Assembly (NCBI GenBank): GCA_023819145.1
Contig: JAMWCW010000008.1
Span: 5,584 to 69,583 of the forward strand
Direction: 5' to 3'
Length of the DNA: 64,000 bases
Source of the DNA: Candidatus Omnitrophota bacterium
GTDB taxonomy: Bacteria > Omnitrophota > Gorgyraeia > DTHP01
Every line of letters begins with the position of its first letter. Within the stretch, counting starts at the first letter, position 1. This document shows positions 1 to 31,540 of this stretch, piece by piece. The notes beneath the pieces are model-generated. The model had not been told where the DNA came from. It worked only from the letters and a program-made list of their open reading frames with translations, and made no database searches. A program made the translations under genes and the position numbers.

Positions 1-169
1 TTCTTTACTCTGGTGGAGTCAATTATTCTCAAGAGATGGGTTAGTTATTTTTCACGAACATATCCTGACCCAGAATGTTACTTCCCAGTTTGTAGGAAAT
101 AATTTTTTATCTCGCCTCACATTTTATCTTAAAGGAATTTGCTTAAACATCTCTCCTCTTTTTACAGTT

Positions 170-403
170 ATGTTTTTGCTAGGTCTATTTTTTTGTTTTA
201 GAGCAATAAAAAAAGAGAATTTTAAATTTATTGTTTTTTGGTTTCTTATAACATATTTTATTTTTTCTTTAATCATAACCAAACACCGGAGGTATTTATT
301 TCCTCTATTGGGATCAATCGTATTAATTTCAGTATTTGGATTATTAGATTCTCCTCTTAAAAAGATTGTAAAAAAATTCTTATTTTATCTTTTCTCTTTT
401 TAG
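170..403 (+). CDS. hypothetical small hydrophobic protein; possibly a fragment of a membrane protein gene
   Basis: ORF track only; hydrophobic low-complexity sequence with no recognisable motif. Confidence 0.2.
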   Translation: MFLLGLFFCFRAIKKENFKFIVFWFLITYFIFSLIITKHRRYLFPLLGSIVLISVFGLLDSPLKKIVKKFLFYLFSF

Positions 404-501
404 GAATCTTACAATTTTTTTTAATCAGTTATTATAAGTATCTTCCTTTTGTTGATACTGAATGGGCTCATCCACCAGAAAGGAATAATTACTACATAGT
501 A

Positions 502-906
502 ATGCAAAAATTTAATAATAAAATAATTCAATTCTCTAAATCTGAAAATAAAATAGGGATTATAGAAGAAGAATTTTTTAAAGGTGATGATTGCGTAATG
601 CTGAGTAATTATCTTAAGGCATTTAATATTGAAAATAAGATTTTTCTAAGTTGTGACGGCTGCTATCCTCATAAGGTCAATAAACATTTCTTATTTAATA
701 TAGAGGAATTTGATTTCTTAATTGGGTTTTCTTCGAAATTATTAGAAAGGCCTGATTTTGCAGGTTTATTTATGTTATCCAGAGATATTCCCAAAGGAAT
801 TGCAGTCGAGAAAATAGAATATTTGAGAAATTTTATAGTTATTCAAAAAGGCATATTATTTCCTGAAAATATTACAAATCTTCTTCTTAAAAACCCTAAT
901 ATGTAA
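502..906 (+). CDS. hypothetical protein
   Basis: 134-aa ORF directly upstream of a GT2 gene on the same strand; no recognisable motif. Confidence 0.3.
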   Translation: MQKFNNKIIQFSKSENKIGIIEEEFFKGDDCVMLSNYLKAFNIENKIFLSCDGCYPHKVNKHFLFNIEEFDFLIGFSSKLLERPDFAGLFMLSRDIPKGIAVEKIEYLRNFIVIQKGILFPENITNLLLKNPNM

Positions 907-920
907 ATAAGAGTTGAGGA

Positions 921-1649
921 ATGGAAAGAAATTTTACCTTAATTTTGCCGGTGAGAGATGAAGAAGAAAATATAAAAATCTTAATTGAGAAATTAAAAAA
1001 AACCCTTAAAGATACAATTGTAATTTTTGTTGATGATAGTTCTACAGATGAAACAGAAAAAATAGTAAAATTATTTATGGCGAAAGACAATGATATCATC
1101 TTGATTGAAAATAAAGGAAGCCGATTAGCTTCGGCAATTAGAACAGGGATAGAAAATGCTTCTACCGAAATTGTGGGCTGGATGGATGCAGATTTATCTA
1201 TGCCCGTAGAGATTATTCCACAGATGGTTGATTTTTTGTCTGAGTATGATATAGTTTTAGGTTCGCGTTATATTGAAGGAGGAAAAGATTTAAGAGAAAG
1301 TAGAATGCGTATTCTTACATCAAGACTATTTAATTTATTGAGTAAAAAAATATTAAATACAAAAACTAACGATCTCACATCGGGCTTTGTTATTACAAAA
1401 AAAGAGTTCTTAGAGGAATTAAAAATAGAAGGTAAATATGGTGAATATTGTCTAAGCCTCATTTATCAGGCAGAGAGGAAAGGATTTAAAATAAAAGAAG
1501 CTCCTTATATATTTCGGGAAAGAAAGAAGGGGAAAAGCAAAATTGGTTCCAATTTATTCATTTTATTTAAGAACTCTCTCTTCTATTTTCTGATGGTAAT
1601 AAGGCTTAAATTTAGAGATTTATTCTTTTATAGAGATAATAAATTTTAG
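921..1649 (+). CDS. GT2 family glycosyltransferase, polyprenol-phosphate sugar synthase (Dpm1/ArnC-like)
   Basis: N-terminal LILPVRDEEENI, central DxD-like VDDSS, and a GT2-A fold pattern (IVGWMDADL, VLGSRY, SGF..T) typical of dolichol-phosphate mannosyltransferase-like enzymes. Confidence 0.75.
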   Translation: MERNFTLILPVRDEEENIKILIEKLKKTLKDTIVIFVDDSSTDETEKIVKLFMAKDNDIILIENKGSRLASAIRTGIENASTEIVGWMDADLSMPVEIIPQMVDFLSEYDIVLGSRYIEGGKDLRESRMRILTSRLFNLLSKKILNTKTNDLTSGFVITKKEFLEELKIEGKYGEYCLSLIYQAERKGFKIKEAPYIFRERKKGKSKIGSNLFILFKNSLFYFLMVIRLKFRDLFFYRDNKF

Positions 1650-3417
1650 GATAAGGGTTTTTAAAAATAGATTTTGGTAGTTCAATTTTTTTTAATAGTT
1701 GATAATTGTATTGATTATTTTGTATCTCAAGAAAGAGTTCAAAAAATAACTTTTCTGCTTCAGAATACGAAATTTTAATATTGTAGTTCTTCTCTATAAC
1801 TTCATGTAAAAAAGTGTATAATTTATGTCTAAACAGAGGATTTCTTAATTCTCTTAAAGAATAAAAAGCATCGCTGTATTTTTCAATTGGCTCAGTAATT
1901 AAAATATAATCAAAATTATATGGCTGAAAAATTATTTTTGGACTTCCGTGACAATCTTTCTCTAAATTAAATAGGAATAATAATACTCGGGGGGTAAGCA
2001 TTTTGTCTTTAATTTTATGGGATATTTTTTCAAGTGTTGTTTCAAAAACATAAGGAATTCTCCATCGTTGTATAATTTTAAATCGCAATATATCTTCGAA
2101 TAAATCATCTGTAGCTAATCCGATAATGAATATCATTTTTTCATTATTTAGTTTCATGTCTTTTATAACTAAGTCTATAATATTATCTATATCCTCGTAA
2201 TCAAAACTAACGGCGTAAAGCATTCCCTCTCTGTGTGTTCTTTTATCAAAATCAATACTTGTAAAGATATATTTATCCTTTTTATAATTGATAATAAAAA
2301 ATTGAACCAGACAAAATAAAAAAAGACATAGAAATATTTTATGTTTATATAAGTTTAAGATTTTTCCCTTATAAATTTTTATGTATTGAGGAAGATTATT
2401 TAAAACATAAGCAATAACTATTCCTGAGGCAGGTAGTGACGGAAGAGTGTGTCTAGGAAAATCTTCGTAAGTGAAAAAAAGAAAATAAAAAAGAGGCGTG
2501 CATAACCAACTTAGAATAAATATCTTGTGTTTAGATTTTGTAATAGAATATAAAAAAAGACAGAAAAATAAAAGAATAGTTAATAGAGGATAAAGCTGAT
2601 ATTTCCAGAGGTTTAGACAAGAGAATTTGTATATATTATTTAACCTATTGATCGTAAATGATGTGTTTGCCGCATTCAACAGATAGAGTTGGCCAGGCAT
2701 ATGTTGGAGATACCACGGTAAAACAATAAGTAAGGGTAAGACAAAAAACAAAATACTAATTATTTTTATCTTCCCAAATTTATAAATAGCGTGAGAAGAA
2801 TATATTAAGAATGGGATAAAAAAATAAATAAGAAACGTTTGTTTATGAAGTAATCCAATTATAATGGTTAGGCTCGAAAAAAAAGAGTATATTTTTTTCT
2901 GAAAATATTCGGATTCAAGCAAAAAATAAAAAAATAAAGCTACTAAAGCTGTAATAGAAAAATCTAACATATACACACGGGAAAATCCAAAGATTCCCGG
3001 GTAAAAACTCACCAATAGAGCAGTGCCCATTCCGGTATATTCATTATCTAAGATTCCTCCAATTTTATATAACGCATAGATTAAGATAAAAAGATATAAG
3101 AGATTTGATAGAAGAGCTGTTTTAAGAGAAGGTCCTAAAAGGATAAAAAATGGTAAAGTAGCCATATGCCTCAAAAAAGGGTAAATCGAGTTAGTATCAA
3201 AAATTAAACATATTCTTTCTTTAAAAGACAATGACGGATTTCTTATAGCTTCGTATACTCTAAGCGAAGAAGAGTAGTATCCTAATTGATCCTCTACGAA
3301 AGGGGCATTGTCTTGAGAGATAATTATAAAATTGTTTATTGTATGGAAAATAAAAATGAGAATTAAGAAAAATTTAGTTCTATTTTTTTGCCAGAAAGAT
3401 AATATGGAAGTCATCAT
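1612..3417 (-). CDS. polytopic membrane glycosyltransferase, GT-C fold (PMT_2/ArnT-like) with C-terminal soluble domain
   Basis: About 12 predicted TM helices in the N-terminal 400 aa. First-loop acidic motif FVEDQLGYY resembles the catalytic DE/DD loop of ArnT/PMT/STT3. Confidence 0.5.
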   Translation of the reverse strand: MMTSILSFWQKNRTKFFLILIFIFHTINNFIIISQDNAPFVEDQLGYYSSSLRVYEAIRNPSLSFKERICLIFDTNSIYPFLRHMATLPFFILLGPSLKTALLSNLLYLFILIYALYKIGGILDNEYTGMGTALLVSFYPGIFGFSRVYMLDFSITALVALFFYFLLESEYFQKKIYSFFSSLTIIIGLLHKQTFLIYFFIPFLIYSSHAIYKFGKIKIISILFFVLPLLIVLPWYLQHMPGQLYLLNAANTSFTINRLNNIYKFSCLNLWKYQLYPLLTILLFFCLFLYSITKSKHKIFILSWLCTPLFYFLFFTYEDFPRHTLPSLPASGIVIAYVLNNLPQYIKIYKGKILNLYKHKIFLCLFLFCLVQFFIINYKKDKYIFTSIDFDKRTHREGMLYAVSFDYEDIDNIIDLVIKDMKLNNEKMIFIIGLATDDLFEDILRFKIIQRWRIPYVFETTLEKISHKIKDKMLTPRVLLFLFNLEKDCHGSPKIIFQPYNFDYILITEPIEKYSDAFYSLRELRNPLFRHKLYTFLHEVIEKNYNIKISYSEAEKLFFELFLEIQNNQYNYQLLKKIELPKSIFKNPYPKIYYLYKRINL

Positions 3418-4180
3418 TTTTTATTCTTATAAATTCAAATGAGGGATAGATATTTATTAGTTTTAAATCTGCTAAGTTGAGATACCTTTCTAATTCATAA
3501 GGAGAGTAAATTCTTAAAATATGTGTCTCTTTGTAGTTTTTAAGAAGTCCATCATTTTTGAATAATTTTAAATTATAATCAATTCTGCAAACTTGTTTTA
3601 ATTCATCAATTTTTATTTTTCCCTCGCGGATCAGTTTACTATTATTAAATTTTATTTCCTTAAAACTTTTTGGAGAAAAAGAATCGGTTGATTTCAAAGC
3701 ATTCCAGACTTCAAAAACAAAAAGACCATTTCTTTTTAGACTTGCATAGACATTTTTAAATAATTGCCTTAGCGATTTTATCTCGGTAATATAATTTATC
3801 ACTGCAAACAAAGAAATTACCACATCAATTTTTTTTCTCGGTCTGTAGTTTGTAATATCTTTTACTAAAAATTTTCCTCTTAAACCTGCTTTGTTTAATT
3901 TTTCTTTGGCAATTTTAACCATATCTTTGGAAATATCTATCCCTGTAACCCGATATCCTCTTTTGATCAATTCTAGGCTATGGTTTCCTGTCCCGCAACC
4001 TAAATCTAAGATATCTTTAGGTTTTTTATTGAGAAATTTTTTAAACAATTTTTCTAAAAAACCAGTCTCTTTTCTATATTCTTTATCTTTATAGATTAAA
4101 TCGTAAAAATAGGCATAGTCAGAATTAAAGCATTTACTTTGCATATTACCTATAATATAGTAAAATATCTTTAACTTCAA
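3380..4180 (-). CDS. class I SAM-dependent methyltransferase
   Basis: Motif I LDLGCGTGNHSLEL and post-I acidic VTGIDIS. The start probably lies downstream of the 38-nt overlap with the preceding gene. Confidence 0.75.
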   Translation of the reverse strand: MKLKIFYYIIGNMQSKCFNSDYAYFYDLIYKDKEYRKETGFLEKLFKKFLNKKPKDILDLGCGTGNHSLELIKRGYRVTGIDISKDMVKIAKEKLNKAGLRGKFLVKDITNYRPRKKIDVVISLFAVINYITEIKSLRQLFKNVYASLKRNGLFVFEVWNALKSTDSFSPKSFKEIKFNNSKLIREGKIKIDELKQVCRIDYNLKLFKNDGLLKNYKETHILRIYSPYELERYLNLADLKLINIYPSFEFIRIKNDDFHIIFLAKK

Positions 4181-5283
4181 TGAAGAAAATAGTTTTTATA
4201 ACCCGTGAAAGTTATGATTTAGCGGGAGCAAGGATTCGATGCTATAATTTCGCAAAAGAATTAAAAAAATATGGCATGGATACCGAAGTTTTATCTTTCG
4301 CTGACCACTTAGGAGCTAAATCAGGGAAAGAAGAAAATAAGTTAAGATTAAGAGATAAAATAAGATATAACCTAAAAGCCATTAAAAAACTCAAAAAAGA
4401 GAAAGATACTATATTTTTTATTAACCGCTTCCATTACCATACTTTCGCCTCCTGGTTTTTATCAATTTTAAATAGAAATAAAATAATTTTTGATTTAGAT
4501 GATTGGGAGATAAGAGAAAATCCGAAATATTACTTTGGCATTTTACCAAGTTCCAAGGCAGAGTTTTTAACTCGCAGATTGGCAAAAACTGCTTCTCTTT
4601 GTATTGGGGCAAGCAGATTTTTAGTAAATTATCTAATTCAATTTAATAAAAAAACATATTACATTCCTTCAGGAGTAAATACGGAAAAATTTAAGCCTCA
4701 AGAAGTTAACAGAGACAATTCTAAGATTATTTTTTCCTGGATAGGAACAATGCACAGGAAACCTGATATAGAAAATATAAAATTTGTTATTGATTGTTTC
4801 TTAGAATTGAGAAAGAAATATGAAAATATTTTTTTGGAAATTGCAGGAGATGGAATTTATTTTGGTGAGTTAGAAAAAATGATTAATAAAGTTGGAGAGA
4901 AAAATATTTCTCTAAAAGGTTGGATTGAACCAGACAAAATGCCTGATTATCTTTCTATAATTGATATCGGTTTAGTTCCTCTAATTCAGAATACAAAATT
5001 CAATTTAGCCAAAAGCCCAACTAAACTTTTTGAATATATGGCGATGGCAAAACCAGTGGTTTGTAGTAATATTGGTGAGTGTAGCTGTATTATTAAAGAT
5101 GGAGAAAATGGCTTCTTAGCCACTGATAAAGAAGAATTTATTAAAAAATTAGAAACCTTAGTGATAAACTATCAGATTAGAAAAGAGATAGGTGAGCAGG
5201 CCTTAAAGACTGTAAAGGAGAATTATTCTTTAGAAATTATCGGCAAAAAACTTTTCAATTTGGCAAAACAGGACAGTCCTTGA
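4180..5283 (+). CDS. glycosyltransferase, GT-B fold (GT4/GT1 family)
   Basis: C-terminal E-x7-E-type motif FEYMAMAKPVVCSNIGECSCIIKDGENGFL, typical of retaining GT4 enzymes. Confidence 0.75.
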   Translation: MKKIVFITRESYDLAGARIRCYNFAKELKKYGMDTEVLSFADHLGAKSGKEENKLRLRDKIRYNLKAIKKLKKEKDTIFFINRFHYHTFASWFLSILNRNKIIFDLDDWEIRENPKYYFGILPSSKAEFLTRRLAKTASLCIGASRFLVNYLIQFNKKTYYIPSGVNTEKFKPQEVNRDNSKIIFSWIGTMHRKPDIENIKFVIDCFLELRKKYENIFLEIAGDGIYFGELEKMINKVGEKNISLKGWIEPDKMPDYLSIIDIGLVPLIQNTKFNLAKSPTKLFEYMAMAKPVVCSNIGECSCIIKDGENGFLATDKEEFIKKLETLVINYQIRKEIGEQALKTVKENYSLEIIGKKLFNLAKQDSP

Positions 5284-5293
5284 TTGTAAAATT

Positions 5294-6763
5294 ATGAAGG
5301 TAGTTTTGGCTAATTCTATCGGTAGAGATAAAAATGGTTTTTATATAATCCATTCTCCTTCGCGCTGGTCTGAAGGAGTAAGGTCTTTAAATAATTGGTT
5401 TGCCTATTATCCCTGGGAGTTAGCTTATACCTCTTCACTTCTAAAAAGAGAAACAGACCATAAAATTAAATTGGTAGATGGTTGCTTGGAAAGACTGGAT
5501 TTAGAAAATTATTATAAGAAGTTATTACAGGAAAAGCCAGATTGGTTAATTATGGAATCCGCTACAAGGATGATTGAAGAAAATTTAGAATTGGCTGTAA
5601 AGATTAAGGAAAATTTAGGGACAAAGATTATTTTTGTTGGACAACATGCATCAGCCTTTCCTGAAGAATTGCTAAATAGAGGAGTAGATTATGTCTGTAT
5701 TGGTGAATATGAGTTGACTGTTTTAGAGTTATTACAAGGAAAAGACCCAAAAAATATCTTAGGGCTCTATCCTAATCCACGGAGACCTCTTTTAGATGTT
5801 AATTTTCTTCCATTCCCTGAGGATGAAGATGTTAGGCGTATCGATTACGGTATGCCTGGAGAGCCATCTTCAGAATATATAGAGATTCAGATGTATGCCT
5901 CAAGGGGTTGTCCGAGAAATTGTAATTTTTGTGTAGCAAGGAATATTTATTATGCTCAAGCTAACTGGCGTCCCAGAAAAATTGAGAATATAATTTCTGA
6001 AATAAAATATTTAAAAAATAGATATCATCAAATGGAGGGAATATTTTTTGATGAAGAGGTGCACAATGTAAGAAAAGATTTTGTTTTGAATTTATGCCAG
6101 GCAATAAAAGAGAATGGTTTAAATAAACTTCATTATGAGGCGATGTGCGATATCTGGTTTATGGATGAGGAGGTGCTTGAGGCAATGCGTGAAGCGGGAT
6201 ATTATAAGATTAGATTTGGCATTGAAACTGCAAATCAAGGTGTAGCGAAATCAATAAACAAAGAACTTAATTTGGAGAAATTGTTTTCTATATTGAAAAT
6301 AGCCAAAGGCATTGGTTTAAAAACCTACGGAACATTTATGTTTGGTGCCTGGGGTTCAACAAAAGAGAGCGATTTAGAGACTATAGAACTAATGAAGAGA
6401 TTAATTATTAATGGTCTTCTTGATAATACCCAGATTTCTATCTGCACACCTCAACCCGGAACAGAATTCTATAGATTGGTAAAGGAAAAAGGTTATTTGG
6501 TAGAAAATGATTATTCTAAATTTGATGGAGGGAATTTCAGTGTAGTAAGTTATCCAAAATATAAAAAGGAAGAAATTGAAGAAATAAAAAATTTAGCTTT
6601 TAAGATAAGAGACCATTTATATTTTGTCTATCGCTTTAAAACTGGCTTATGGCTTAATTGGCTAATTTATGTATGGAAAAAATACGGATTTTGGAAAACA
6701 ACCAAGAAAATCTTTATCCGTTTTTTGAAGGAACTTAATTTCTTATGGCAAAGATTTCAATAA
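5294..6763 (+). CDS. B12-binding domain radical SAM protein (class B)
   Basis: N-terminal Rossmann-like cobalamin-binding region, then CPRNCNFC (CX3CX2C) radical SAM cluster motif and a TIM-barrel-like remainder. Confidence 0.8.
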   Translation: MKVVLANSIGRDKNGFYIIHSPSRWSEGVRSLNNWFAYYPWELAYTSSLLKRETDHKIKLVDGCLERLDLENYYKKLLQEKPDWLIMESATRMIEENLELAVKIKENLGTKIIFVGQHASAFPEELLNRGVDYVCIGEYELTVLELLQGKDPKNILGLYPNPRRPLLDVNFLPFPEDEDVRRIDYGMPGEPSSEYIEIQMYASRGCPRNCNFCVARNIYYAQANWRPRKIENIISEIKYLKNRYHQMEGIFFDEEVHNVRKDFVLNLCQAIKENGLNKLHYEAMCDIWFMDEEVLEAMREAGYYKIRFGIETANQGVAKSINKELNLEKLFSILKIAKGIGLKTYGTFMFGAWGSTKESDLETIELMKRLIINGLLDNTQISICTPQPGTEFYRLVKEKGYLVENDYSKFDGGNFSVVSYPKYKKEEIEEIKNLAFKIRDHLYFVYRFKTGLWLNWLIYVWKKYGFWKTTKKIFIRFLKELNFLWQRFQ

Positions 6764-7683
6764 TCATTGTAACCTGTAACGCAATAAAAATAATTAAAGA
6801 TTGCTTTATTTCAATTTTTAGACAGGATTTTAAGGATTTTGAGGTGATTGTAGTGGACAATAACTCTTTAGATAGGACAAAAGAATTTATAAAAGATAAT
6901 TTTCCTCAAGTAAAATTGATTGAAAATAAAAAAAATTTAGGATTTTGTCGGGCAAATAATCAGGGAATTGCGATTTCTCAAGGAGAATATATCCTTACTT
7001 TAAATAGTGATGTAATTCTGGAAAAAAATTTCTTACGAGAATTGATAAATCAGGCAGAGAATAGTTCATCAATTGTTGGGATGTTTAGTCCAAAGATTCT
7101 TAAGATGGATAAAAAAACTATTGATTCTACAGGAATTATTTTGACGCGCATAAGGAGATTTTATAATCGAGGGGAGGGCGAAATTGATTTTGGTCAATAT
7201 GATGATAAAAGAGATATTTTTGGCCCGTCTGCAGCCTGTGCTTTATATAAAAAAGAAATGTTTGAGAAAATAAAAATTGGTGATAATGAATATTTTGATA
7301 ACGATTTCTTTTTCTTAGTTGAGGATGTAGATTTGGCATGGCGAGCAAATTTAATGGGTTTTAAAGGATTATTCATACCAAATGCTTTATGCTATCATTT
7401 AGGAAATAGTTTTGGTTTAAGTAGAAAAATGCGTCAATATCTTTCTTTTCGTAATCGCTTTCTAACGATGCTAAAGAATGAAAGTTGGGGTTATTTTTTA
7501 AAAAATTTAGTATTTTTATTATTATATGATATCCCAAGGTTTTTATATCTAATATTCACTAATTTACTTGTCTTTAAAGCAACCTTTGAGATAATTTATC
7601 TTCTGCATAAAATACTTAATAAACGCAGGCGCATAACTTTATTTACTCGATTAGGGATAATAAGTTTATATGAGATATTTTAA
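6745..7683 (+). CDS. GT2 family glycosyltransferase
   Basis: IIIVTCNA...VIVVDNNS..D N-terminal GT-A signature and DxD-like region. Confidence 0.7.
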   Translation: MAKISIIIVTCNAIKIIKDCFISIFRQDFKDFEVIVVDNNSLDRTKEFIKDNFPQVKLIENKKNLGFCRANNQGIAISQGEYILTLNSDVILEKNFLRELINQAENSSSIVGMFSPKILKMDKKTIDSTGIILTRIRRFYNRGEGEIDFGQYDDKRDIFGPSAACALYKKEMFEKIKIGDNEYFDNDFFFLVEDVDLAWRANLMGFKGLFIPNALCYHLGNSFGLSRKMRQYLSFRNRFLTMLKNESWGYFLKNLVFLLLYDIPRFLYLIFTNLLVFKATFEIIYLLHKILNKRRRITLFTRLGIISLYEIF

Positions 7684-8872
7684 ATCTTCAGAATTGTATT
7701 TAATTCGAAATGTTTTTCAGGCCGTAATTAATGGTGGGCATAAAAACGAAATAAAGCGTATTTTAGAAAATAAGCATATAAATTGGGAAATATTGGATAA
7801 ATTAATTATATATCATGAGATAGCCCCTGCGTTTTACTTGGCTATATCCTCGCTGTTTCATTTAATTCCTCAAAAGACAAAAACTCTGCTTGAGTGGTTT
7901 TATTTTAATACAGGGTTTAAGAACCATATAATATTTGAAGAATTTATAAAATTATACGATAAATTTAAAGAAAAGGGAATAGAAATATTACCCATTAAAG
8001 GAGTTGCCTTTTTATTGGATTTATATGATAGTTTTTATGTTAGGTCTATTGCTGATATAGATATTTTAATACGTAGAGAATATTATAGTAAAGGAGAGAG
8101 TGTTTTAATGAACTTGGGTTTTCAAAAAGACTTGCATGGTTTAGAGGAAGCTTATTGGAAGTTATATCAATGTCACATTTCATTTAGAGATAAAGAAAAA
8201 AACAATGATTTACCCATTATGGTAGATCTTCATTGGGCGCTTGATTTTAAAAGGAAAGGTAGATATGTTTTGGCCAATCTGTGGAAAAGGCTAAGAACAA
8301 TTAGGATCAAAAATAATAACAATATAAATTTATTATCTCCTGAGGATAATTTATTTTCTCTGGCTTTACATTTGAGAAGATTTGGTAATCCCTTTTCTTT
8401 TAAATATGTTATTGATACGGCCCTTTTATTTAGGAAATACGGTTCGGATTTTGATTGGGATTATTTTTTAAAAGAAGCTAAAAAAGAAGGTTTATGGTCG
8501 TGTAGTTATTTTCTAATTTTCTTAGCCAATTCTATTATTGAAATTCCTGAGCTTAAATATTCTGCAAAAAAAATTCCATTATCTAATTATAAGAGGAAAA
8601 TTATCGAAAAACTAATACTCAAAAAATTATGCTTTCTTAATGACTTGCTCGCACAAAATCTGAGAAAAAATTACCTTCAGAGCCATTTTTTATTTTATGA
8701 TGGTTTCTTTGAACCAATTTATTATATTTTAAACATTCCCTTAGAACAATTTGCAAAATTTTATAATTTAAAACCTTATAATCAAAAAACAAGAATCAAA
8801 TATAGCTTTCGTTTTCTATATATACCTACTAAATTATTATTTTTTAATTTTAATAATATCCCATTTGCATAA
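7670..8872 (+). CDS. nucleotidyltransferase-fold protein (PF14907-like, RiPP-associated)
   Basis: PIKGVAFLLDLYDSFYVRSIADIDILIRRE resembles the G..x..D.D NTase motif. It sits convergent to and 36 nt overlapping the PqqD-like gene. Confidence 0.45.
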   Translation: MRYFKSSELYLIRNVFQAVINGGHKNEIKRILENKHINWEILDKLIIYHEIAPAFYLAISSLFHLIPQKTKTLLEWFYFNTGFKNHIIFEEFIKLYDKFKEKGIEILPIKGVAFLLDLYDSFYVRSIADIDILIRREYYSKGESVLMNLGFQKDLHGLEEAYWKLYQCHISFRDKEKNNDLPIMVDLHWALDFKRKGRYVLANLWKRLRTIRIKNNNNINLLSPEDNLFSLALHLRRFGNPFSFKYVIDTALLFRKYGSDFDWDYFLKEAKKEGLWSCSYFLIFLANSIIEIPELKYSAKKIPLSNYKRKIIEKLILKKLCFLNDLLAQNLRKNYLQSHFLFYDGFFEPIYYILNIPLEQFAKFYNLKPYNQKTRIKYSFRFLYIPTKLLFFNFNNIPFA

Positions 8873-9139
8873 TTTTTCTATAAATTTTATTATATCTCTT
8901 TTCAAATTTTGAGTATAATTTATATTGAATTTCGTGCACATTTCTACAATAATTTCTTTTATGTTTTTCTTACCATCTATCTTATCCCAAATATATGCTC
9001 CAGTGCGATTAAGTTCATATATTTCATTAGTAGGTATATATAAAAGAACTAAAGTATCTTCTATTTTTCTCCAGGCAAGTTTGTTTTTATTCTTTTTAAA
9101 TATAAATTCAGGTTTAATTACTTTTTTGTTTTTTTCCAT
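8837..9139 (-). CDS. PqqD-family protein (RiPP recognition element / peptide chaperone)
   Basis: About 100 aa with LNRTGAYIWDKIDGKKNIKEIIVEMCTKF...IKFIEKL, a PqqD-like winged-helix pattern. The ORF track starts at GTG 9148 but ATG 9139 (MEKNKK) is the more likely start. It lies 1 nt after the precursor ORF stop. Confidence 0.7.
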   Translation of the reverse strand: MEKNKKVIKPEFIFKKNKNKLAWRKIEDTLVLLYIPTNEIYELNRTGAYIWDKIDGKKNIKEIIVEMCTKFNINYTQNLKRDIIKFIEKLCKWDIIKIKK

Positions 9140-9140
9140 G

Positions 9141-9290
9141 CTACTCACACACTATTATGTCAACACATTGCGGTGGAGAATATATACATTGAGTGTTTAC
9201 AATGCCTTTGGGAAATTTATTCATTTTTTTTATTGTGGGTTTCTCATATTTTCTTTTTTCTTGATTTTTAATTATGTTTTTCTTATCCAT
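9141..9290 (-). CDS. putative RiPP precursor peptide (49 aa, 3 Cys), not in the ORF track
   Basis: Hand translation of the minus strand gives MDKKNIIKNQEKRKYEKPTIKKMNKFPKGIVNTQCIYSPPQCVDIIVCE. The ATG is 4 nt after the rSAM/SPASM stop and a GGAGG lies 8 nt upstream. The stop is 1 nt before the PqqD ATG. Confidence 0.5.
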   Translation of the reverse strand: MDKKNIIKNQEKRKYEKPTIKKMNKFPKGIVNTQCIYSPPQCVDIIVCE

Positions 9291-9294
9291 TATT

Positions 9295-10308
9295 CTAACC
9301 TCCTTTTGCTAATAAATTTGTTAGTCTCTTTGCCTTTGAGAATATTTTATCGGGGCATTTTGTGGGATTACCGCTATAGAATTCAAAAACTGCAGGGCAC
9401 TTGAATATACAGATATTTCTATAATAGCATGTTTGACAATCTTTAAAGTCAGAAAATTTCAACTCTCGTAGTCTTGTGAATAAAGGAGAATTATACCATA
9501 TATCTGTAAGGGATTGCTTTTGGATATTCCCCGCTTCTTTATAATAAACTGCGCATGGAAAGACCCGTCCTTCTGCAGAGATATAACACCTTGTTATACC
9601 TGCTCCACAAGGAATAGGATTATTTTTAAAACGGATTAAGTGAGAACGGTCTAATTTGTATAATTTGATCTTCCAGCGATTGACTAAGGTAATTAAACCA
9701 TCGGGAGGGAGTTCGTATTCTAAAGTTTTCAAAGAAAATCTTCGGGTAGGAGCAATTGTAGAAGAGAATTTAAGATTTATATTTTTTCTATTTTTTTTTA
9801 ATTTATTATATATTTTTTTTATTTCTGGGATGCCTTTATAAGTGAGAGTATTAATAGGATAAATTAAGCCTATATTTGCTCCAATGTTAAGAAGATTTTC
9901 AATCCCCTTTAGAGCATTTTTAAATTTTCTCTTTCCAGTAAAATTCTCATAGGTTTCTTCATTGGCACCGTAAAGAGTAACTTTAAAATCAAATACACCG
10001 TGTTTAAATAGACGATGGGCAGTTGATTTATCAATTAAAGTTCCATTGGTAAGAAGCCCTACTTTAAATCCTTTTTTTCTTGCCTTTTGGATAAGATAGA
10101 ATATATCTTTTCTAATTAAAGGTTCTCCTCCGGTAAGGGTAATAGTCAGGGTTCCAAGATTAGTTAACTCGTCCAATAGGCAAAGATAGATTTGTTTGTC
10201 TAGTTCGATATTATCTTTTTCCAAAAAACAATATTTGCATTTTAAATTGCAGGAACGCGTTATTTCTATATGTATTGTTTCAATATAATTTCTTCTATTT
10301 TCTGCCAT
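9295..10308 (-). CDS. radical SAM/SPASM-domain peptide maturase
   Basis: N-terminal CNLKCKYC (CX3CX2C). C-terminal SPASM pattern PCGAG...C...C then CQTCYYRNICIFKC (CX2CX5CX3C), then KCP. Confidence 0.85.
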   Translation of the reverse strand: MAENRRNYIETIHIEITRSCNLKCKYCFLEKDNIELDKQIYLCLLDELTNLGTLTITLTGGEPLIRKDIFYLIQKARKKGFKVGLLTNGTLIDKSTAHRLFKHGVFDFKVTLYGANEETYENFTGKRKFKNALKGIENLLNIGANIGLIYPINTLTYKGIPEIKKIYNKLKKNRKNINLKFSSTIAPTRRFSLKTLEYELPPDGLITLVNRWKIKLYKLDRSHLIRFKNNPIPCGAGITRCYISAEGRVFPCAVYYKEAGNIQKQSLTDIWYNSPLFTRLRELKFSDFKDCQTCYYRNICIFKCPAVFEFYSGNPTKCPDKIFSKAKRLTNLLAKGG

Positions 10309-11201
10309 AGGTTTATTTGTTTTAAATTTGCTTTTTTTAATAATAAGGGATTGATTTTTAATATAACACTTTTTGCCTGAAGTGTCAATGTATATAAAAG
10401 TGCAATCACTCTTTTAGTCAAAAAGACCTTATTTACGGCTGCAAATCGTAGGGGAAAAATTTCACAAAGAAGTTTCAGCAAAGTTTCTTTTAGAGAAGGA
10501 ATAACAATTTGGAAATGGCAGATATCATCAGCTTTTTCCAAAAAAAGGATATGCGTTGGTTTTGAATTATTAATCCAATTACTAATTGCTAAATCCAACT
10601 TGAAATTTTGTTTTTTAAATCCACCTATGTAAGGTAATCCCGCAGTTATGATATGTTCTTTTTTAGCGATAAAAATAGAATCATCTCCTACTATTTTATA
10701 TCCCTTCTGAATAGCATTAATTAATAAAGTAGATTTACCAGCCCCACTTTTGCCGGTAGCAAGTACGGAAATTCTATCATTTGTCCAACTGGAGGCATGG
10801 ATTGAAAAGAATCCTTCTGCTTGAAGCAATGTTTTAAGCGTATTTTGGAAAATTGCATAATATCCGATAGGATTATTGAGATATTTGTGCATAGTTATAA
10901 ATGCTGAAAGATTTTCAAAATCTAAGAAATATTCATAAAATGGGGTATGATTAAAATGCATTTTTCGTGGAGAAAATTTACACTTTATTGATTTACTTGT
11001 TTTTGGTTTTCTTAGAAATATAATCTCTATCTCTTTTTGAGGGGTAGTTTTTGGTAAGTTAAGGTAGTTTTTTTTTAGATAGTTAATAAGTAAGGGGATG
11101 TCAGAGAGTAATTTAATTTTATAATTATAAAACTGTAAGGAGAAATTTTTAAGGCCTTCTTTTTTAATAAAAAAAATACTTCCCATTTTTTTTGAACACA
11201 A
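10266..11201 (-). CDS. HPr kinase-related (HprK C-terminal domain-like) P-loop kinase
   Basis: VLATGKSGAGKSTLLINAIQKGYKIVGDDSIF matches the HprK P-loop (G.SG.GKSE...rG..LV.DD). It overlaps the rSAM start by 43 nt. Confidence 0.65.
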   Translation of the reverse strand: MCSKKMGSIFFIKKEGLKNFSLQFYNYKIKLLSDIPLLINYLKKNYLNLPKTTPQKEIEIIFLRKPKTSKSIKCKFSPRKMHFNHTPFYEYFLDFENLSAFITMHKYLNNPIGYYAIFQNTLKTLLQAEGFFSIHASSWTNDRISVLATGKSGAGKSTLLINAIQKGYKIVGDDSIFIAKKEHIITAGLPYIGGFKKQNFKLDLAISNWINNSKPTHILFLEKADDICHFQIVIPSLKETLLKLLCEIFPLRFAAVNKVFLTKRVIALLYTLTLQAKSVILKINPLLLKKANLKQINLWQKIEEIILKQYI

Positions 11202-11309
11202 ACTGTATTGCAGATTTTAATATTTGTTAGTAGAATATTATATAATAGATTTTAAAATAATTACATCGATTTTAGAAAATTTAAATATGTAAAAACAAAA
11301 TAAAAAATA

Positions 11310-12782
11310 ATGAGAATTAAGGTTATTCTTCTAATAGTTTTATTATTAGCTTTGGGGATAAGGATTTACTGTTTAGGAAAGTGGGAACTCTGGTATGATG
11401 AGATTTTAGCGATTAAGACTGCGCAGAATTTTAGATTAGCGAATAATTCTTATCTGTATTATACTCTTCTTTATTATTGGATAAAATTTTTTAAATTCTC
11501 TGAATCCACTGTTCGTATTCCGTCTTTAATTTTCAGTATGTTATCTATAGCCTCACTTTATTTGTTGGGAAAAAATTTATTTAATGAGAAAATCGCTTTG
11601 TTCTCTACCGGGTTATTGGCTTTTAATCCATTTCATATCTGGTATTCTCAGGAGGCAAGACCTTATAGTGCATTGGTTTTGTGTGGTATTTTGTCATCAT
11701 ATTTTTTATTTAGAGGGTTAAAGGAAAAAAAGATTTTATTTTTATTTCCCTTCACTTTTTTATCTGTTGTTGGAATATATCTCCACTATTTTTATATTAC
11801 CTTTTTGCTAGTATGTTTATTTATTGTTTTATTATTTTTGTTTGTTAAAAAACAAAAATATTATGTTTATTGGCTTACAATAAGTATATTAATTATTTTT
11901 TTGTTCCTTTCTCCTTGGCTACCGCGGTTTCTATTAAATCTGTGCTGTATTATAGATGGATTTTGGATACCTGTGCCTAGTTTTAAATCTTTGTTTATAA
12001 CTTTAGAAAATTTTAATTTAGGTTATAATGCTCCTAATTGGGCGTATAAATATTCATTATTTTTGACTCTTATTTTATTTCTCTCCGCCATAAATTTTCT
12101 TAGAGAAAAAAAAGAATTACAGAGCAACTTTTGGTTATGTTTGATGTTATTTATTTTACCCATTTTATTTGCCTTTTTCTTTTCTAAATTTTTATTTTCC
12201 ATCTATCTTGATCGTGCCTTAATGATTTCTTCTCCTTATTATTATTTAATCTTAGGGATAGGTTTAGAGTCCATAGGGAGGAAGAAGTTAAAATATTTTG
12301 TAAAATTATCTATATTTTTTTTGTTAGTTCAGAGTCTATCTTTTTATTACCAAGGTATCACACATTCGTCTCTTACACACCATACAGGTGCTTACGTTAA
12401 AAAGCCTATAAGGCCTGTAATTAATTATTTAGAAAGAAGAGTGAATAAAAATGATATAATATGTATTATAAATACCCATGTATTTCTACAATTTAATTTT
12501 TATAAACAAAATAAAGGGATATTATGTTTTTATGTTTTTTCTCCAGAAATATGGGATACTAATTGGAACAGACCTCATTCTGAAGGAAATAACTGGATTC
12601 CTGTAAATAGATTAATAGGATTTGATAGTGATAGAATATGGATGCTTTTTTCTGATTGTCCGAGAAGCGGCAAGTTAGATGAAAATTCCCAAAAAGTTAA
12701 GTCATGGATGGATAAAAACTACCTGACTATATTCGAACAGTGGCTAGATGGGATTTTGCTAAAATTATATGAAAAAAAGTAG
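11310..12782 (+). CDS. GT-C fold membrane glycosyltransferase (PMT_2/ArnT family)
   Basis: Polytopic membrane protein. First-loop motif LWYDEILAIK and FNPFHIWYSQEARPYS resemble ArnT/PMT_2. Confidence 0.65.
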   Translation: MRIKVILLIVLLLALGIRIYCLGKWELWYDEILAIKTAQNFRLANNSYLYYTLLYYWIKFFKFSESTVRIPSLIFSMLSIASLYLLGKNLFNEKIALFSTGLLAFNPFHIWYSQEARPYSALVLCGILSSYFLFRGLKEKKILFLFPFTFLSVVGIYLHYFYITFLLVCLFIVLLFLFVKKQKYYVYWLTISILIIFLFLSPWLPRFLLNLCCIIDGFWIPVPSFKSLFITLENFNLGYNAPNWAYKYSLFLTLILFLSAINFLREKKELQSNFWLCLMLFILPILFAFFFSKFLFSIYLDRALMISSPYYYLILGIGLESIGRKKLKYFVKLSIFFLLVQSLSFYYQGITHSSLTHHTGAYVKKPIRPVINYLERRVNKNDIICIINTHVFLQFNFYKQNKGILCFYVFSPEIWDTNWNRPHSEGNNWIPVNRLIGFDSDRIWMLFSDCPRSGKLDENSQKVKSWMDKNYLTIFEQWLDGILLKLYEKK

Positions 12783-13872
12783 GTTATTATTTATAGTCAT
12801 TTTGTTGGCTTCGTCTCTTTGGTTTTCTTCTCCAAAGTGTATGGTAGACAACTTAGATTTGTTTAACAGAGAAGAGATCTCTACAGCCAAGATTTATTAT
12901 TTTGTAGAAATACCGAGGACAAAATATGGCAGATACTCAGGGAAAGGAGAGATTATTTTTAAAAGAGATTTCGGGGTTATAAATAATATGGTCAATAATT
13001 ATTCTGAGAAAAAAGATGAAGAAAGAATAAAAATAATTGAAAATTTTATTACAGGAATTAATTTAAATTATAACTATTTAACTAATAAAGTAGAAAAAAG
13101 AGACTACCATAATTGGTTTGGAATAAAATGGTATTTCGGTAAGGATTTACATTTTAATATTTGGGACATTTTTGCTATTTCAAGAAGCAATTTATTATCT
13201 GTTTATAACCACGAAGGGATAGAGAAAAAAGGTAATAAAGAGATCTCTATAATTTCTGGGATTTTGGCTAAATATCCTTTTTGGGGGAATAAATGCAAAA
13301 TCTGGATAGATAAAGAGTATAATTTTATTCATAAATTTATTATTTATAGTGAAAAAGATGAGCCGATTTTTACCTTAGAGGTTACGGAGGTGGAAGTAAA
13401 TCCGGAAATAGACGATAAAGAATTTAGCACAGAGATTCCTCCGGATTTTACTGTGGTAGATATAACCGAACAATTTGCCCAGCAATATCGGATTCTTGTG
13501 CAATTGTATGATTTTTATAATCGGATTAAGGAATTAGAAAAAAAGTTAGAAGTTTTACGAAAAGAAAATGAGGAATTAAAAGAGATGTCTAAGGAAAAGG
13601 AAGTTGAGAAGAGAATTGCTATAACCAAGGAGCCAGTTGTTCTATTCATAGATAGAGAAAATAAATTTGTGGTTATGGGAGGAAGAGAAGATGATTTAGT
13701 GGTGGGAGAAATATTTGAGGTTTATCGGGGAAGTAAACTGTTGGGTAAGCTTGAGATTACGCGGGTTTATCAAGATTTGGCAGTGGCAGAGCCAGTTATG
13801 GAGGGGCTAATGGATGTTATTAAAGAGGGCGATAGTTTGGTAAGAGCGAGTTCAGAAAGTTTTTTCCCTTGA
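12769..13872 (+). CDS. hypothetical secreted protein with coiled-coil segment
   Basis: N-terminal signal-like hydrophobic segment and a KE-rich coiled-coil (LEKKLEVLRKENEELKEMSKEKEVEKR). Confidence 0.4.
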   Translation: MKKSRLLFIVILLASSLWFSSPKCMVDNLDLFNREEISTAKIYYFVEIPRTKYGRYSGKGEIIFKRDFGVINNMVNNYSEKKDEERIKIIENFITGINLNYNYLTNKVEKRDYHNWFGIKWYFGKDLHFNIWDIFAISRSNLLSVYNHEGIEKKGNKEISIISGILAKYPFWGNKCKIWIDKEYNFIHKFIIYSEKDEPIFTLEVTEVEVNPEIDDKEFSTEIPPDFTVVDITEQFAQQYRILVQLYDFYNRIKELEKKLEVLRKENEELKEMSKEKEVEKRIAITKEPVVLFIDRENKFVVMGGREDDLVVGEIFEVYRGSKLLGKLEITRVYQDLAVAEPVMEGLMDVIKEGDSLVRASSESFFP

Positions 13873-13950
13873 CAAATAATTATAATGTGATATAGTGAGT
13901 GTGTAAAGGTTGAAAGTAGGAGGAAATTGGAAGTAGTTGGACATCTTTAA

Positions 13951-13989
13951 ATCGTAAGGTTTTTTTATTTTCACCTTACGATTTTTTTA
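13951..13989 (+). terminator. rho-independent terminator
   Basis: ATCGTAAGGT / ACCTTACGAT 10-bp stem, 12-nt loop, followed by TTTTTTT. Confidence 0.55.
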
Positions 13990-14027
13990 TAGATGTAATT
14001 TAAATAGAAAGGAGGTGAATAAAGTTG

Positions 14028-26313: not shown

Positions 26314-26502
26314 TCTTCTTCCTCCTTTTTTATAGGATTTTATAGGAAAGTTAAGGAGTTAAATTGAAATTTAATAGAGTTCTTTCTCCATCACCTCCTT
26401 TTTTAGGATAAATATAAATTTAGAAATAACTTGCATAAAATTTGAAATTATTATAAAGCAAAATAAATTGTTTTGTCAAGAAAAAAATTACCTTAAACCC
26501 CC

Positions 26503-26546
26503 TGCCCACCTCGTAGGTGGACTTTCTTCCCACCTACGAGGTGGGC
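26503..26546 (+). repeat. GC-rich inverted repeat (GCCCACCTCGTAGGTGG ... CCACCTACGAGGTGGGC)
   Basis: 17-bp arms with a 9-nt loop in an otherwise AT-rich divergent intergenic region. Confidence 0.6.
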
Positions 26547-26553
26547 TATATGG

Positions 26554-27357
26554 GTGTTTAATTTCTTGTTAGCTTTCTTATTTTCTGTTATAATTTTTCC
26601 CATGAGTTTTGTGGTCGTTATCCCTATTTACAATGAAAAAGAACACATAAAGCCTCTGATTAAAGAGATTTTAGCAGTGGAAAATGTTTCTAAAATTATT
26701 GTCATTGACGATAATTCTTCCGATGGGACGGGAGGAGTTTTAGATGAACTCAAAGAGGAAGTTTGGCAATTAAAAGTTATACATCGTCCTCAAAAATTGG
26801 GTTTAGGAACCGCTTATATTGAAGGATTTAGACTTGCTTTAAAAGAAGATTGTAATTTTATTCTTCAGATGGATGGAGATTTTTCTCATGACCCAAAATA
26901 CATTCCTCAAATGCTTGAAGCTATAAAGACTTGCGATTTGGTGATTGGTTCACGCTATATTTCGCAAGGAGGAATTAAAAATTGGAGCCTTTGGCGGAGA
27001 TTATTAAGTAAAGTAGCAAGTATTTATGTCCGCATCATCACAAAAATGCCTCTTAATGATCCCACTAGTGGTTTTAAATGTTTTAGGAGAAAAGTTCTGG
27101 AAAAAATTACTTTGGATAAAATACACTCGCAGGGTTATGCTTTTCAAATCGAAATGAATTATTTAGTCTGGGGAAATAATTTTCGCATTAAAGAAATTCC
27201 CATTGTTTTTTACGAACGAAAAAGAGGAAAATCAAAACTTAACCTGAGAATAATTCTTGAAGCCATGTGGCGTGTCTGGGAACTACGTTTTGGAAACGAA
27301 ATGATTCGAAGAATAACGAATCGTACAATGATATTTGGATTATTCGTTGTCATTTGA
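26554..27357 (+). CDS. GT2 polyprenol-phosphate mannosyl/glycosyltransferase (Dpm1/Ppm1-like)
   Basis: VVVIPIYNEKEHI, VIDDNSSDGT, LQMDGDFSHDP, VIGSRY, DPTSGFKCFRR. The start is GTG at 26554 or ATG at 26602. Confidence 0.8.
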   Translation: MFNFLLAFLFSVIIFPMSFVVVIPIYNEKEHIKPLIKEILAVENVSKIIVIDDNSSDGTGGVLDELKEEVWQLKVIHRPQKLGLGTAYIEGFRLALKEDCNFILQMDGDFSHDPKYIPQMLEAIKTCDLVIGSRYISQGGIKNWSLWRRLLSKVASIYVRIITKMPLNDPTSGFKCFRRKVLEKITLDKIHSQGYAFQIEMNYLVWGNNFRIKEIPIVFYERKRGKSKLNLRIILEAMWRVWELRFGNEMIRRITNRTMIFGLFVVI

Positions 27358-30844: not shown

Positions 30845-31540
30845 ATGATAAGAAACATTTCGGTTTTTTTCCCTGCTTATAATGAAGAAAAAAATATCGA
30901 AAAGGTAGTTTTATCTACTTTAGATTTTTTAAAAGAAATTACTTCCGATTATGAGATAATTATTGTTAACGATGGGAGCAAAGATAGAACAGGAGAAATT
31001 GCAGAAGATTTATCTAAAAAAAATCCACAGGTTAAAGTGGTCCATCACTCTAAAAATTTAGGTTATGGCTCGGCACTTACTTCTGGATTTAGAAATTCTA
31101 CCAAAGATTTGGTTTTCTTCATGGATAGTGATAACCAATTTGATATCAAAGAAATAAGAAATTTATTGCCTCTTTTAGAGAGCTTTGATGTAGTGGTGGG
31201 TTATCGGCTAAGAAGAAAGGACTCTTTTCATCGTAAATTGAATGCCTGGCTTTTTAATCTATTGGTAAATATCTTGTTTTGTTTAGGAATAGAAGATGTG
31301 GATTGCGGGTTTAAGTTATTTAAAAAAGAAGCAGTAGAAAATATAAAATTGGAATCAAAAGGAGCTTTAATCTCAACAGAATTATTGGTGAAAATTAAAA
31401 AAAGGGGTTTTAGAATAAAGCAAGTAGGAGTGCACCATTATCCACGGATGCACGGGAAACAAACCGGTACAAACTTTAAGGTGATTTTAAGGTTTTTTAA
31501 GGAATTGATTAAGATGGGATGGAAACTAAGATTTAGTTAA
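30845..31540 (+). CDS. GT2 polyprenol-phosphate glycosyltransferase (ArnC/GtrB-like)
   Basis: ISVFFPAYNEEKNI, IIIVNDGSKDRT, FFMDSDNQFD, VVGYR. Confidence 0.8.
   Translation: MIRNISVFFPAYNEEKNIEKVVLSTLDFLKEITSDYEIIIVNDGSKDRTGEIAEDLSKKNPQVKVVHHSKNLGYGSALTSGFRNSTKDLVFFMDSDNQFDIKEIRNLLPLLESFDVVVGYRLRRKDSFHRKLNAWLFNLLVNILFCLGIEDVDCGFKLFKKEAVENIKLESKGALISTELLVKIKKRGFRIKQVGVHHYPRMHGKQTGTNFKVILRFFKELIKMGWKLRFS

Follow-up and report, generated by a model that had tools for sequence, protein, structure and literature searches.

A predicted radical SAM/SPASM peptide system of Omnitrophota with a PsmN-like nucleotidyltransferase, bordered by an uncharacterised sugar module

We analysed a stretch of 64,000 nt from a Candidatus Omnitrophota metagenome-assembled genome (contig JAMWCW010000008.1, positions 5,584–69,583), hereafter the window, in which a set of sugar genes converges on an operon for a putative ribosomally synthesised peptide with post-translational modifications (RiPP). 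Features are numbered by window positions; family scans of the window open reading frames (ORFs) covered 1–21.5 kb, with Pfam bit scores judged against gathering cut-offs and NCBIfam/TIGRFAM scores against curated cut-offs. Four genes are packed on the + strand with successive spacings of +10, −19, and −14 nt: a family 4 glycosyltransferase (GT4; 4180–5283, Glyco_trans_1_4, 76.8 bits); a B12-binding radical S-adenosylmethionine (SAM) enzyme resembling HpnJ, BchE, and AprD4 (B12-rSAM; 5294–6763, Radical_SAM 57.1 bits, cut-off 29.5, and B12-binding 35.4 bits, cut-off 32.1); a family 2 glycosyltransferase (GT2b; 6745–7683, Glycos_transf_2, 105.3 bits); and a PsmN-like nucleotidyltransferase (NTase) of family NTP_transf_5 (PF14907; 7670–8872, 140.3 bits, cut-off 31.2). 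The NTase stop lies at 8872 and that of the convergent PqqD-family gene at 8837, leaving a 36-nt overlap. Both the overlap and the packing of the B12-rSAM, GT2, and PF14907 genes behind a GT4 gene, beside a RiPP operon, had been described in a first-pass annotation of this DNA and were borne out by the ORFs and Pfam matches. In our preferred interpretation two units probably meet at 7670–7683, one being the trio of GT4, B12-rSAM, and GT2b, a sugar module, and the other an NTase whose function would lie with the convergent peptide operon.

The peptide operon occupies the − strand in the order HPr-kinase-like P-loop protein (10266–11201), radical SAM/SPASM (rSAM/SPASM) peptide maturase (9295–10308), 49-aa precursor peptide (9141–9290), and, last, the PqqD-family peptide-binding protein of the RiPP recognition element (RRE) type (8837–9148; PqqD, 54.4 bits), for which an ATG at 9139 is the more likely true start. 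The precursor, MDKKNIIKNQEKRKYEKPTIKKMNKFPKGIVNTQCIYSPPQCVDIIVCE, was identified by its strong Shine-Dalgarno sequence (AAAGGAGGT, 7 nt upstream) and by its conservation in the one close relative of the operon; its core contains three Cys residues and its C-terminus reads ...VCE. The maturase (Radical_SAM 77 bits, SPASM 47.7 bits) carries a CxxxCxxC motif at residue 20. In the kinase-like protein, a Walker A motif (GKSGAGKS) is found at residue 150, and the Hpr_kinase_C match (27.6 bits, under the cut-off) is limited to the P-loop region; against a profile of ScmC-like proteins from Omnitrophota it scored 34.8 bits. We classify it as a distant ScmC-like protein and a putative Ser/Thr kinase of the peptide.

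Among 5.8 billion proteins this kinase has a single relative (64% identity), encoded on a 5.6-kb contig (L075) that repeats the layout of the window, with a PMT_2 gene and a partner lacking a family match on one strand and kinase, rSAM/SPASM, peptide, and PqqD genes on the other. Identities to the window proteins are 68% for PMT_2, 56% for its partner, 69% for the maturase, and 61% for PqqD. A local alignment of 30 aa puts the two precursors at 63% identity, and they have in common the motif KYEKPxIKK...IVxTQCxxSPPxC...VC; the last residue is Glu in the window peptide and Tyr in that of L075 (...VCY). A metagenome scan with a two-sequence rSAM/SPASM alignment returned two relatives at 24% identity, an eight-sequence alignment was too divergent for search patterns, and the frequency of the NTase given the core was inferred from loci anchored on the NTase.

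The set of core genes in the window is an outlier. Profiles of the two large Omnitrophota precursor families described below gave no significant match to the window peptide; it shares its position and leader motif with short peptides of loci L001 and L018, and its proposed kinship with the two families is drawn from the leader motif K-[WYF]-x(1-2)-P-x-[ILV], the position, and the L075 orthologue. The divergence of the near-orphan kinase coincides with the loss of a C-terminal Ser/Thr in the adjoining peptide. The window cassette appears to be without a dedicated protease or exporter, because profiles of the S24 peptidase and ABC exporter families found nothing in the window, and nor did those of the Wzy_C and U32 families.

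A protein 100% identical to the NTase is present at NCBI, and homologues among the matches listed are about 40% identical and nearly all from Omnitrophota. Residues G111, D129, and D131 of the window protein, which include a DxD metal-binding motif, are invariant in 34 aligned sequences. The AlphaFold2 (AF2) model (pLDDT 91.7) is predicted to adopt a Pol-beta-type NTase fold with the Gly...DxD signature; its top Foldseek matches were MenT1, ANT(2'')-Ia, and LnuA, joined by TM1012 and FKRP, and the model also matched the ANT(2'') entries 5cfs and 4xje, structures likewise reported for PsmN (PMC6993621). PsmN, in the lasso peptide cluster of pseudomycoidin, is described as an 'uncharacterized NTP transferase' and is needed for the addition of one or two hexoses to a C-terminal Ser phosphorylated by PsmK, a member of the HPr-kinase family; a D134A/D136A mutant is inactive, and the authors left undecided whether it represents a novel type of glycosyltransferase or only a source of substrate (PMC6993621). 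According to a later paper, in vitro activity of a PsmN-type NTase has not been seen, and our literature searches on PF14907, NTP_transf_5, and SynChlorMet returned nothing useful. Like PsmN, the window NTase is encoded together with PqqD-family and HPr-kinase-like proteins; a substrate peptide with a C-terminal Ser is found neither in the window nor in L075.

A scan of one genome per species yielded 63 NTase loci, which we annotated using profiles of the window proteins and of clusters conserved among the loci; smaller denominators (33, 34, 46, 51, and 24) count the loci with enough flank for the given distance. Within 9 kb 3′ of the NTase, rSAM/SPASM genes were present in 27/33 loci, often in two to six copies, PqqD in 20/33, a ScmC-type HPr-kinase-like gene in 19/33, and an ABC exporter in 12/33, with S24-type peptidases in about half. 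The closest homologue on a long contig (L001) belongs to a co-directional set of NTase, HPr-kinase-like protein (Pfam ScmC), PqqD, 35-aa peptide, and rSAM genes that adjoins glmS and gyrAB; Pfam ScmC (PF27840) is recorded on the homologues in L001, L002, and L005. On the 5′ side, 24/51 loci had a co-directional PMT_2 or Wzy_C gene within 500 nt, 29/46 had one within 4 kb, and 24/34 had any glycan gene within 9 kb. Glycan genes 5′ and peptide genes 3′ of the NTase were seen together in 13 of the 24 fully flanked loci, and 89–92% of the family-matching genes around the NTase were co-directional with it. A GT2b orthologue occurred 5′ of the NTase in 8/63 loci, a GT4 orthologue was present in 3/63, and a B12-rSAM at least 40% identical to that of the window was found near the NTase in none of the 63 (best 31%). 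A glycan cluster beside a peptide cassette is a common arrangement for the PF14907 family, and the first-pass annotation overstated matters in calling the locus unusual whether its sugar genes served the peptide or a separate glycan pathway.

In 9/63 loci, and in 11 of the best 120 homologues, the PF14907 NTase carries a fused C-terminal Peptidase_S24-like domain, probably a leader peptidase. Examples are L002 (10001–11851) and eight other loci of L006–L068, a GNAT domain sometimes being present as well, and the fused proteins are P0005, P0006, P0014, P0017, P0021, P0024, P0026, P0060, P0077, P0084, and P0094. S24-like genes stand alone in other cassettes.

Outside Omnitrophota, a plasmid collection contained four records with PF14907, all four with PqqD adjoining, three of them lasso-type and two with an HPr-type kinase. 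Paenibacillus (L080) has a full lasso-type cluster of NTase, Asn-synthase-like, HPr-kinase-like, PqqD, transglutaminase-like, and ABC genes, preceded by ManC and a UDP-glucose/GDP-mannose dehydrogenase. Lasso genes follow five glycosyltransferases and a methyltransferase in Thalassobaculum (L083), and a GT4, sulfatases, and a flippase in the archaeon Halopiger (L084); in Crinalium (L081/L082), PqqD, NTase, and HPr kinase genes are followed by methyltransferase and GT-A genes. The PF14907 threshold was passed by all five NTases tested from three of the records (two of them in Crinalium) and by the Paenibacillus one. Each of the four records has its PF14907 gene flanked by sugar or glycan genes on one side and by peptide genes that include PqqD on the other. 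We place the NTase with the peptide genes because of the rSAM/SPASM genes (27/33 loci), PqqD, and kinase downstream of it, the S24 fusions, the plasmid records, and the genetics of PsmN.

The trio presents a different picture, that of a conserved glycan-type unit occurring without peptide genes. The B12-rSAM has the B12-binding domain and the CxxxCxxC core of class B enzymes (CPRNCNFC, from residue 206) and belongs to no characterised methylase family. Its own family comprises 632 matches at E < 1e-10, the best 120 all at least 51% identical; homologues among the matches listed are mostly from Omnitrophota with some from other phyla, and one (P0121) is 91% identical. This tight conservation contrasts with the fast-evolving peptide genes. 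We read and re-annotated six loci anchored on B12-rSAM orthologues (57–80% identity, flanks of 10 kb). A GT4 orthologue (52–76% identity) lies 5′ of the B12-rSAM in five of the six, and a GT2 directly 3′ in five of the six, four of these being orthologues at 45–68% identity and the one in L074 a more distant GT2; in L079 a 50% GT2b orthologue sits two genes 5′ instead. NTase, PqqD, and ScmC/kinase genes were each absent within 10 kb of the B12-rSAM in all six loci, and no small ORF checked in these loci was precursor-like; the orthologues thus stand beside a precursor or RRE in 0/6 loci. In L074, from an unclassified bacterium, the B12-rSAM/GT2 pair occurs alone beside a GT9 heptosyltransferase and MlaEFD. 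Loci L073, L078, and L079 additionally carry rSAM/SPASM genes without PqqD.

Curated models point the same enzyme away from peptide methylation. The best were HpnJ (TIGR03471, 163.2 bits, cut-off 577.6) and then BchE; ApyD (90/750), rSAM_ocin_1 (42/282), PhpK (52.6/600), and HpnR (88/650) were all under their cut-offs. The nearest solved structure was the dehydratase AprD4 (1e-15, PDB search), and no class B methylase was retrieved from the PDB at E up to 1. HpnJ, BchE, and AprD4, the closest characterised relatives, are not methylases; the first-pass annotation had pointed out that class B enzymes commonly C-methylate. For GT2b, the SunS model (TIGR04195) gave 33.7 bits against a cut-off of 350, the match spanning residues 4–91, the generic N-terminal GT-A region. 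SunS-type S-glycosyltransferase activity is not supported for GT2b, given this partial, sub-threshold match and the orthologue contexts without peptides. We predict a sugar or glycolipid, rather than the peptide, as the substrate of the B12-rSAM. C-methylation of the peptide and S-glycosylation of its Cys residues, as earlier proposed for these two enzymes, are unlikely because the models score below cut-off, no methylase is among the relatives, and the orthologue loci lack peptide genes. Nor does the B12-rSAM travel with the peptide core, as such a role would lead one to expect: no orthologue was found near the 63 NTase loci or on the 5.6-kb contig L075, an absence that the first-pass annotation had itself named as refuting its idea, and the glycosyltransferases are only partly absent (GT2 in 8/63 loci, GT4 in 3/63).

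From the observed gene content, family membership, NTase fold and carboxylates, and co-occurrence patterns, we infer the following chemical steps. The trio would make or alter a sugar of an envelope glycan or glycolipid; taking hpnI, hpnK, and hpnJ as an analogy, its GT2 would put on a glycosyl residue that the B12-rSAM then modifies, not necessarily by methylation. On the peptide side, the 49-aa precursor would be bound at its leader by PqqD and cross-linked in its three-Cys core by the rSAM/SPASM enzyme, and the HPr-kinase-like protein would phosphorylate a Ser or Thr. Using its DxD metal site, the NTase might then decorate that phosphate, as PsmN places a hexose on phospho-Ser in pseudomycoidin.

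Several observations weigh against this division of labour. The assignment of the NTase to the core draws on association across the family rather than on orthologous synteny, and the link to PsmN assumes that PsmN belongs to PF14907, as its description as an 'uncharacterized NTP transferase' suggests. Within the window, the NTase overlaps GT2b by 14 nt, is translationally coupled to it, and runs in the direction opposite to that of the peptide operon; on L075 no NTase was found in the 550 nt past PqqD, where the contig stops. Neither the window peptide nor that of L075 has a C-terminal Ser/Thr, and the window kinase is a sequence outlier. Glycan genes without peptide genes within 9 kb were seen at 4 of the 24 fully flanked NTase loci, and the recurrence of GT2b orthologues 5′ of the NTase (8/63) leaves trio and cassette short of full independence. 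Some of these points would fit an NTase that is itself a glycan-pathway enzyme, a LicD/FKRP-like phospho-substituent transferase or a sugar activator, next to PqqD by accident. We consider this quite improbable. The shared strand and overlap with GT2, the PMT_2 or Wzy_C gene immediately 5′ in 24/51 loci, the 4/24 loci with glycan genes only, FKRP among the matches of the predicted structure, and the PqqD gene of L075 without an NTase beside it are consistent with such a role, but it would leave unexplained the fusions to S24 peptidase domains, the peptide-maturation genes 3′ of the NTase in 27/33 loci, the adjoining PqqD in 4/4 plasmid records, and the PsmN genetics (PMC6993621), and none of the six trio loci holds an NTase. 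The first-pass suggestion of a separate glycan pathway accordingly holds for GT4, B12-rSAM, and GT2b, which recur without peptide genes, and fails for the NTase, a companion of peptide cassettes; treating the four genes as one set is likewise justified for the first three, found together in the orthologue loci, and not for the fourth.

A broader alternative joins the two units into one pathway, in which the whole 14-kb low-GC island would make a phospho-glycosylated, radical-SAM cross-linked, non-lasso peptide. We rate it as rather unlikely, and with the same reserve its particulars, whereby kinase and NTase would prime a sugar that the co-transcribed GT4, B12-rSAM, and GT2 (perhaps with PMT_2) extend or remodel, and its generalisation, that PF14907 enzymes might couple glycan genes to PqqD-dependent peptide maturation in bacteria and archaea. 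The 13/24 loci with glycan genes 5′ and peptide genes 3′, the 89–92% co-directionality, the like layouts in Thalassobaculum, Halopiger, Crinalium, and Paenibacillus, the GT2b orthologues 5′ of the NTase in 8/63 species, and the 14-nt GT2/NTase overlap all agree with it; PsmN-dependent hexosylation is documented (PMC6993621), and lasso clusters of Butyrivibrio combine NTase, HPr kinase, and GT2 (PMC7533575). It is at odds with the 6/6 trio orthologue loci that lack NTase, PqqD, and kinase within 10 kb, with the 0/63 NTase loci that have a B12-rSAM orthologue, and with L075, a short contig of 5.6 kb, which shows the core without trio or NTase. A peptide glycosylated with a sugar made next door nevertheless keeps a modest chance, because the NTase recurs at the border of sugar and peptide genes. 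We give almost no credence to the proposal that the B12-rSAM C-methylates the peptide, that GT2 S-glycosylates its Cys residues as SunS does, or both. Proximity to the peptide operon, the three Cys of the core, and weak matches to RiPP models (ApyD 90, rSAM_ocin_1 42, SunS 33.7 bits) speak for it, but those scores fall far short of 750, 282, and 350, the SunS match is confined to the generic N-terminal GT-A region, the best relatives HpnJ, BchE, and AprD4 are not methylases, no solved class B methylase was matched at E up to 1, and the 57–80% orthologues lie in loci without precursor, PqqD, or kinase. A sugar on the peptide, which the first-pass annotation had also raised, is thus disfavoured by way of a SunS-like GT2 and is a possibility by way of the kinase and the PsmN-like NTase.

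We favour the two-unit interpretation, and several known systems help to place it. Pseudomycoidin (PsmK/PsmN) and paeninodin (PadeK) similarly combine an HPr-kinase-like protein, a PqqD-family protein, and a nucleotidyltransferase in one peptide cluster. The NTase shares the DxD metal site and ANT(2'')-like fold with the pseudomycoidin system, and the Ser/Thr ends of related Omnitrophota precursors resemble its phosphorylated C-terminal Ser. The window differs from both in that its core maturase is an rSAM/SPASM enzyme, its peptide ends in Glu, and its NTase is encoded on the other strand, attached to glycan genes. A lasso cluster was rejected, as neither an Asn-synthase-like cyclase nor a transglutaminase-like B2 protease was found among the ORFs of 1–21.5 kb. 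HPr-kinase-related proteins, PqqD relatives, and rSAM/SPASM enzymes also come together in the SynChlorMet (SCM) systems ScmC/ScmD/ScmE/ScmF and in HprK-related kinase A/B systems; in the window the SCM models stayed under their cut-offs (ScmD 28.7/100, ScmE 114.8/400), the ScmC model did not match the kinase at E up to 0.01, and it gave the L001 protein 16.8/125. Our literature search found no published function for SCM cassettes. Mycofactocin (MftA/B/C with the GT2 MftF) likewise pairs a small peptide, a PqqD-like chaperone, and an rSAM/SPASM enzyme with a GT2 that glycosylates the peptide-derived product; it was rejected on the scores of MftC (114.3/265) and MftF (44/280), the lack of a Val-Tyr C-terminus, and the presence of a kinase and an NTase.

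For the trio, the hopanoid genes hpnI, hpnK, and hpnJ offer a parallel, in which a radical SAM enzyme is paired with a glycosylation step on one substrate, a glycosyl residue being put on first and remodelled by the radical SAM enzyme afterwards; this is an analogy, not membership. HpnI is a GT2 enzyme. Together the three genes convert bacteriohopanetetrol (BHT) to BHT cyclitol ether (PMC5462960). The window B12-rSAM scores far under the HpnJ cut-off (163.2/577.6), its GT2 does not match HpnI, and no hopanoid genes were found in the 21 kb scanned. Glycocins (SunS) and PoyC/TsrM have only the enzyme classes, GT2 and B12-domain rSAM, in common with the window.

These comparisons support, at the level of sequence, the existence of an undescribed rSAM/SPASM peptide system across Omnitrophota with a PsmN-like tailoring NTase, beside which lies an uncharacterised sugar module. 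The B12-rSAM and GT2 at this locus are best left out of any list of RiPP tailoring enzymes, which averts a likely mis-annotation; the pair represents a large, conserved, uncharacterised family deserving a study of its own. For the question of how PsmN-type NTases sugar-modify a phosphorylated peptide, the tie of PF14907 to radical-SAM/SPASM cassettes across an uncultured phylum, often as peptidase fusions, provides many new and simpler test cases. The position of PF14907 genes at the border between sugar and peptide genes was seen in four further phyla.

The first 14 kb of the window have 27–31% GC and the remaining 50 kb 33–41%; the low-GC island (1–14000) coincides with the entire glycan-plus-peptide block. 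Promoter and terminator scans at 28% GC gave 69 promoter-like sites against 61 expected and, the low GC making the scan weak, no terminator between NTase and PqqD. At the 5′ end, a second GT2 of the polyprenyl-phosphate sugar synthase type (GT2a; 921–1649, +, Glycos_transf_2 97.8 bits) had PgfS, dolichyl-phosphate hexose transferase, AglJ, and ArnC-type enzymes as its best NCBIfam models, all under cut-off; its homologues lie directly 5′ of PMT_2 in several related loci, and it is likely to make the donor for a GT-C enzyme. A polytopic membrane protein with at least nine hydrophobic segments (1612–3417, −) matched no Pfam or NCBIfam family; distant relatives in L073 and L078 (weak) carry a PMT_2 annotation, and it is possibly a distant GT-C. 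Next comes a SAM-dependent methyltransferase (3380–4180, −; Methyltransf_25, 79.1 bits), whose listed ORF shares its first base, 4180, with that of GT4 (4180–5283, +). There is no room for an intergenic promoter between the two, because their starts share this base; one of the start calls is probably wrong, the methyltransferase ORF beginning with TTG.

On the far side of the peptide operon, a PMT_2 membrane glycosyltransferase of the ArnT/PMT-type GT-C class (11310–12782, +; PMT_2, 46.5 bits) and a 367-aa protein (12769–13872, +) diverge from the kinase gene. The latter has no family match and a single, N-terminal hydrophobic segment and is conserved beside PMT_2; the two form an overlapping pair that is kept in L075 (1–2561) at the identities given above. 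The genes 3′ of the island are ordinary, including a CBS-domain protein, a CitMHS transporter, and an acyl-CoA dehydrogenase with EtfAB. Outside the island, ORFs at 26497–27357 and 30845–31540 (+) match the polyprenyl-phosphate sugar synthase-type GT2 profile at 238 and 173 bits.

Loci L006–L068 contain two undescribed multi-copy precursor families with conserved leaders (RKPKFKPxITRVKLNPEQAVLxCxC and KKKWxKPKLIILxRGKPEEGVL) and hypervariable Cys-containing cores, for which no Pfam or NCBIfam model was found. Examples lie at L014 16043–16243, L018 355–636 and 2190–2480, and L012 2231–2419, and there are four copies each in L038 and L040. A Ser/Thr C-terminus, often within a Ser-rich tail, was found in 39/49 leader-motif ORFs of related loci, against 12.8% of control ORFs. 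Peptidase_U32 genes recur within Omnitrophota cassettes as two clusters in five to six loci each (for example L020 13671–14729, L018 13211–14077, and L038 3338–4207). Glycosyltransferase–rSAM/SPASM fusions were seen in glycan clusters adjoining the cassette (L002 80–3514 and 5202–7571, L005 663–3113), with the architectures GT2-rSAM-SPASM-rSAM (1144 aa) and rSAM/SPASM-GT4 (789–816 aa). Finally, in two species, L005 18318–21134 and L079 11510–16968 have island ends alike, a Wzy_C gene (−) followed by GT2, rpsO, and pnp; the L005 version holds the NTase cassette and the L079 version the B12-rSAM trio, which suggests a hypervariable glycan/radical-SAM island at a fixed chromosomal site.

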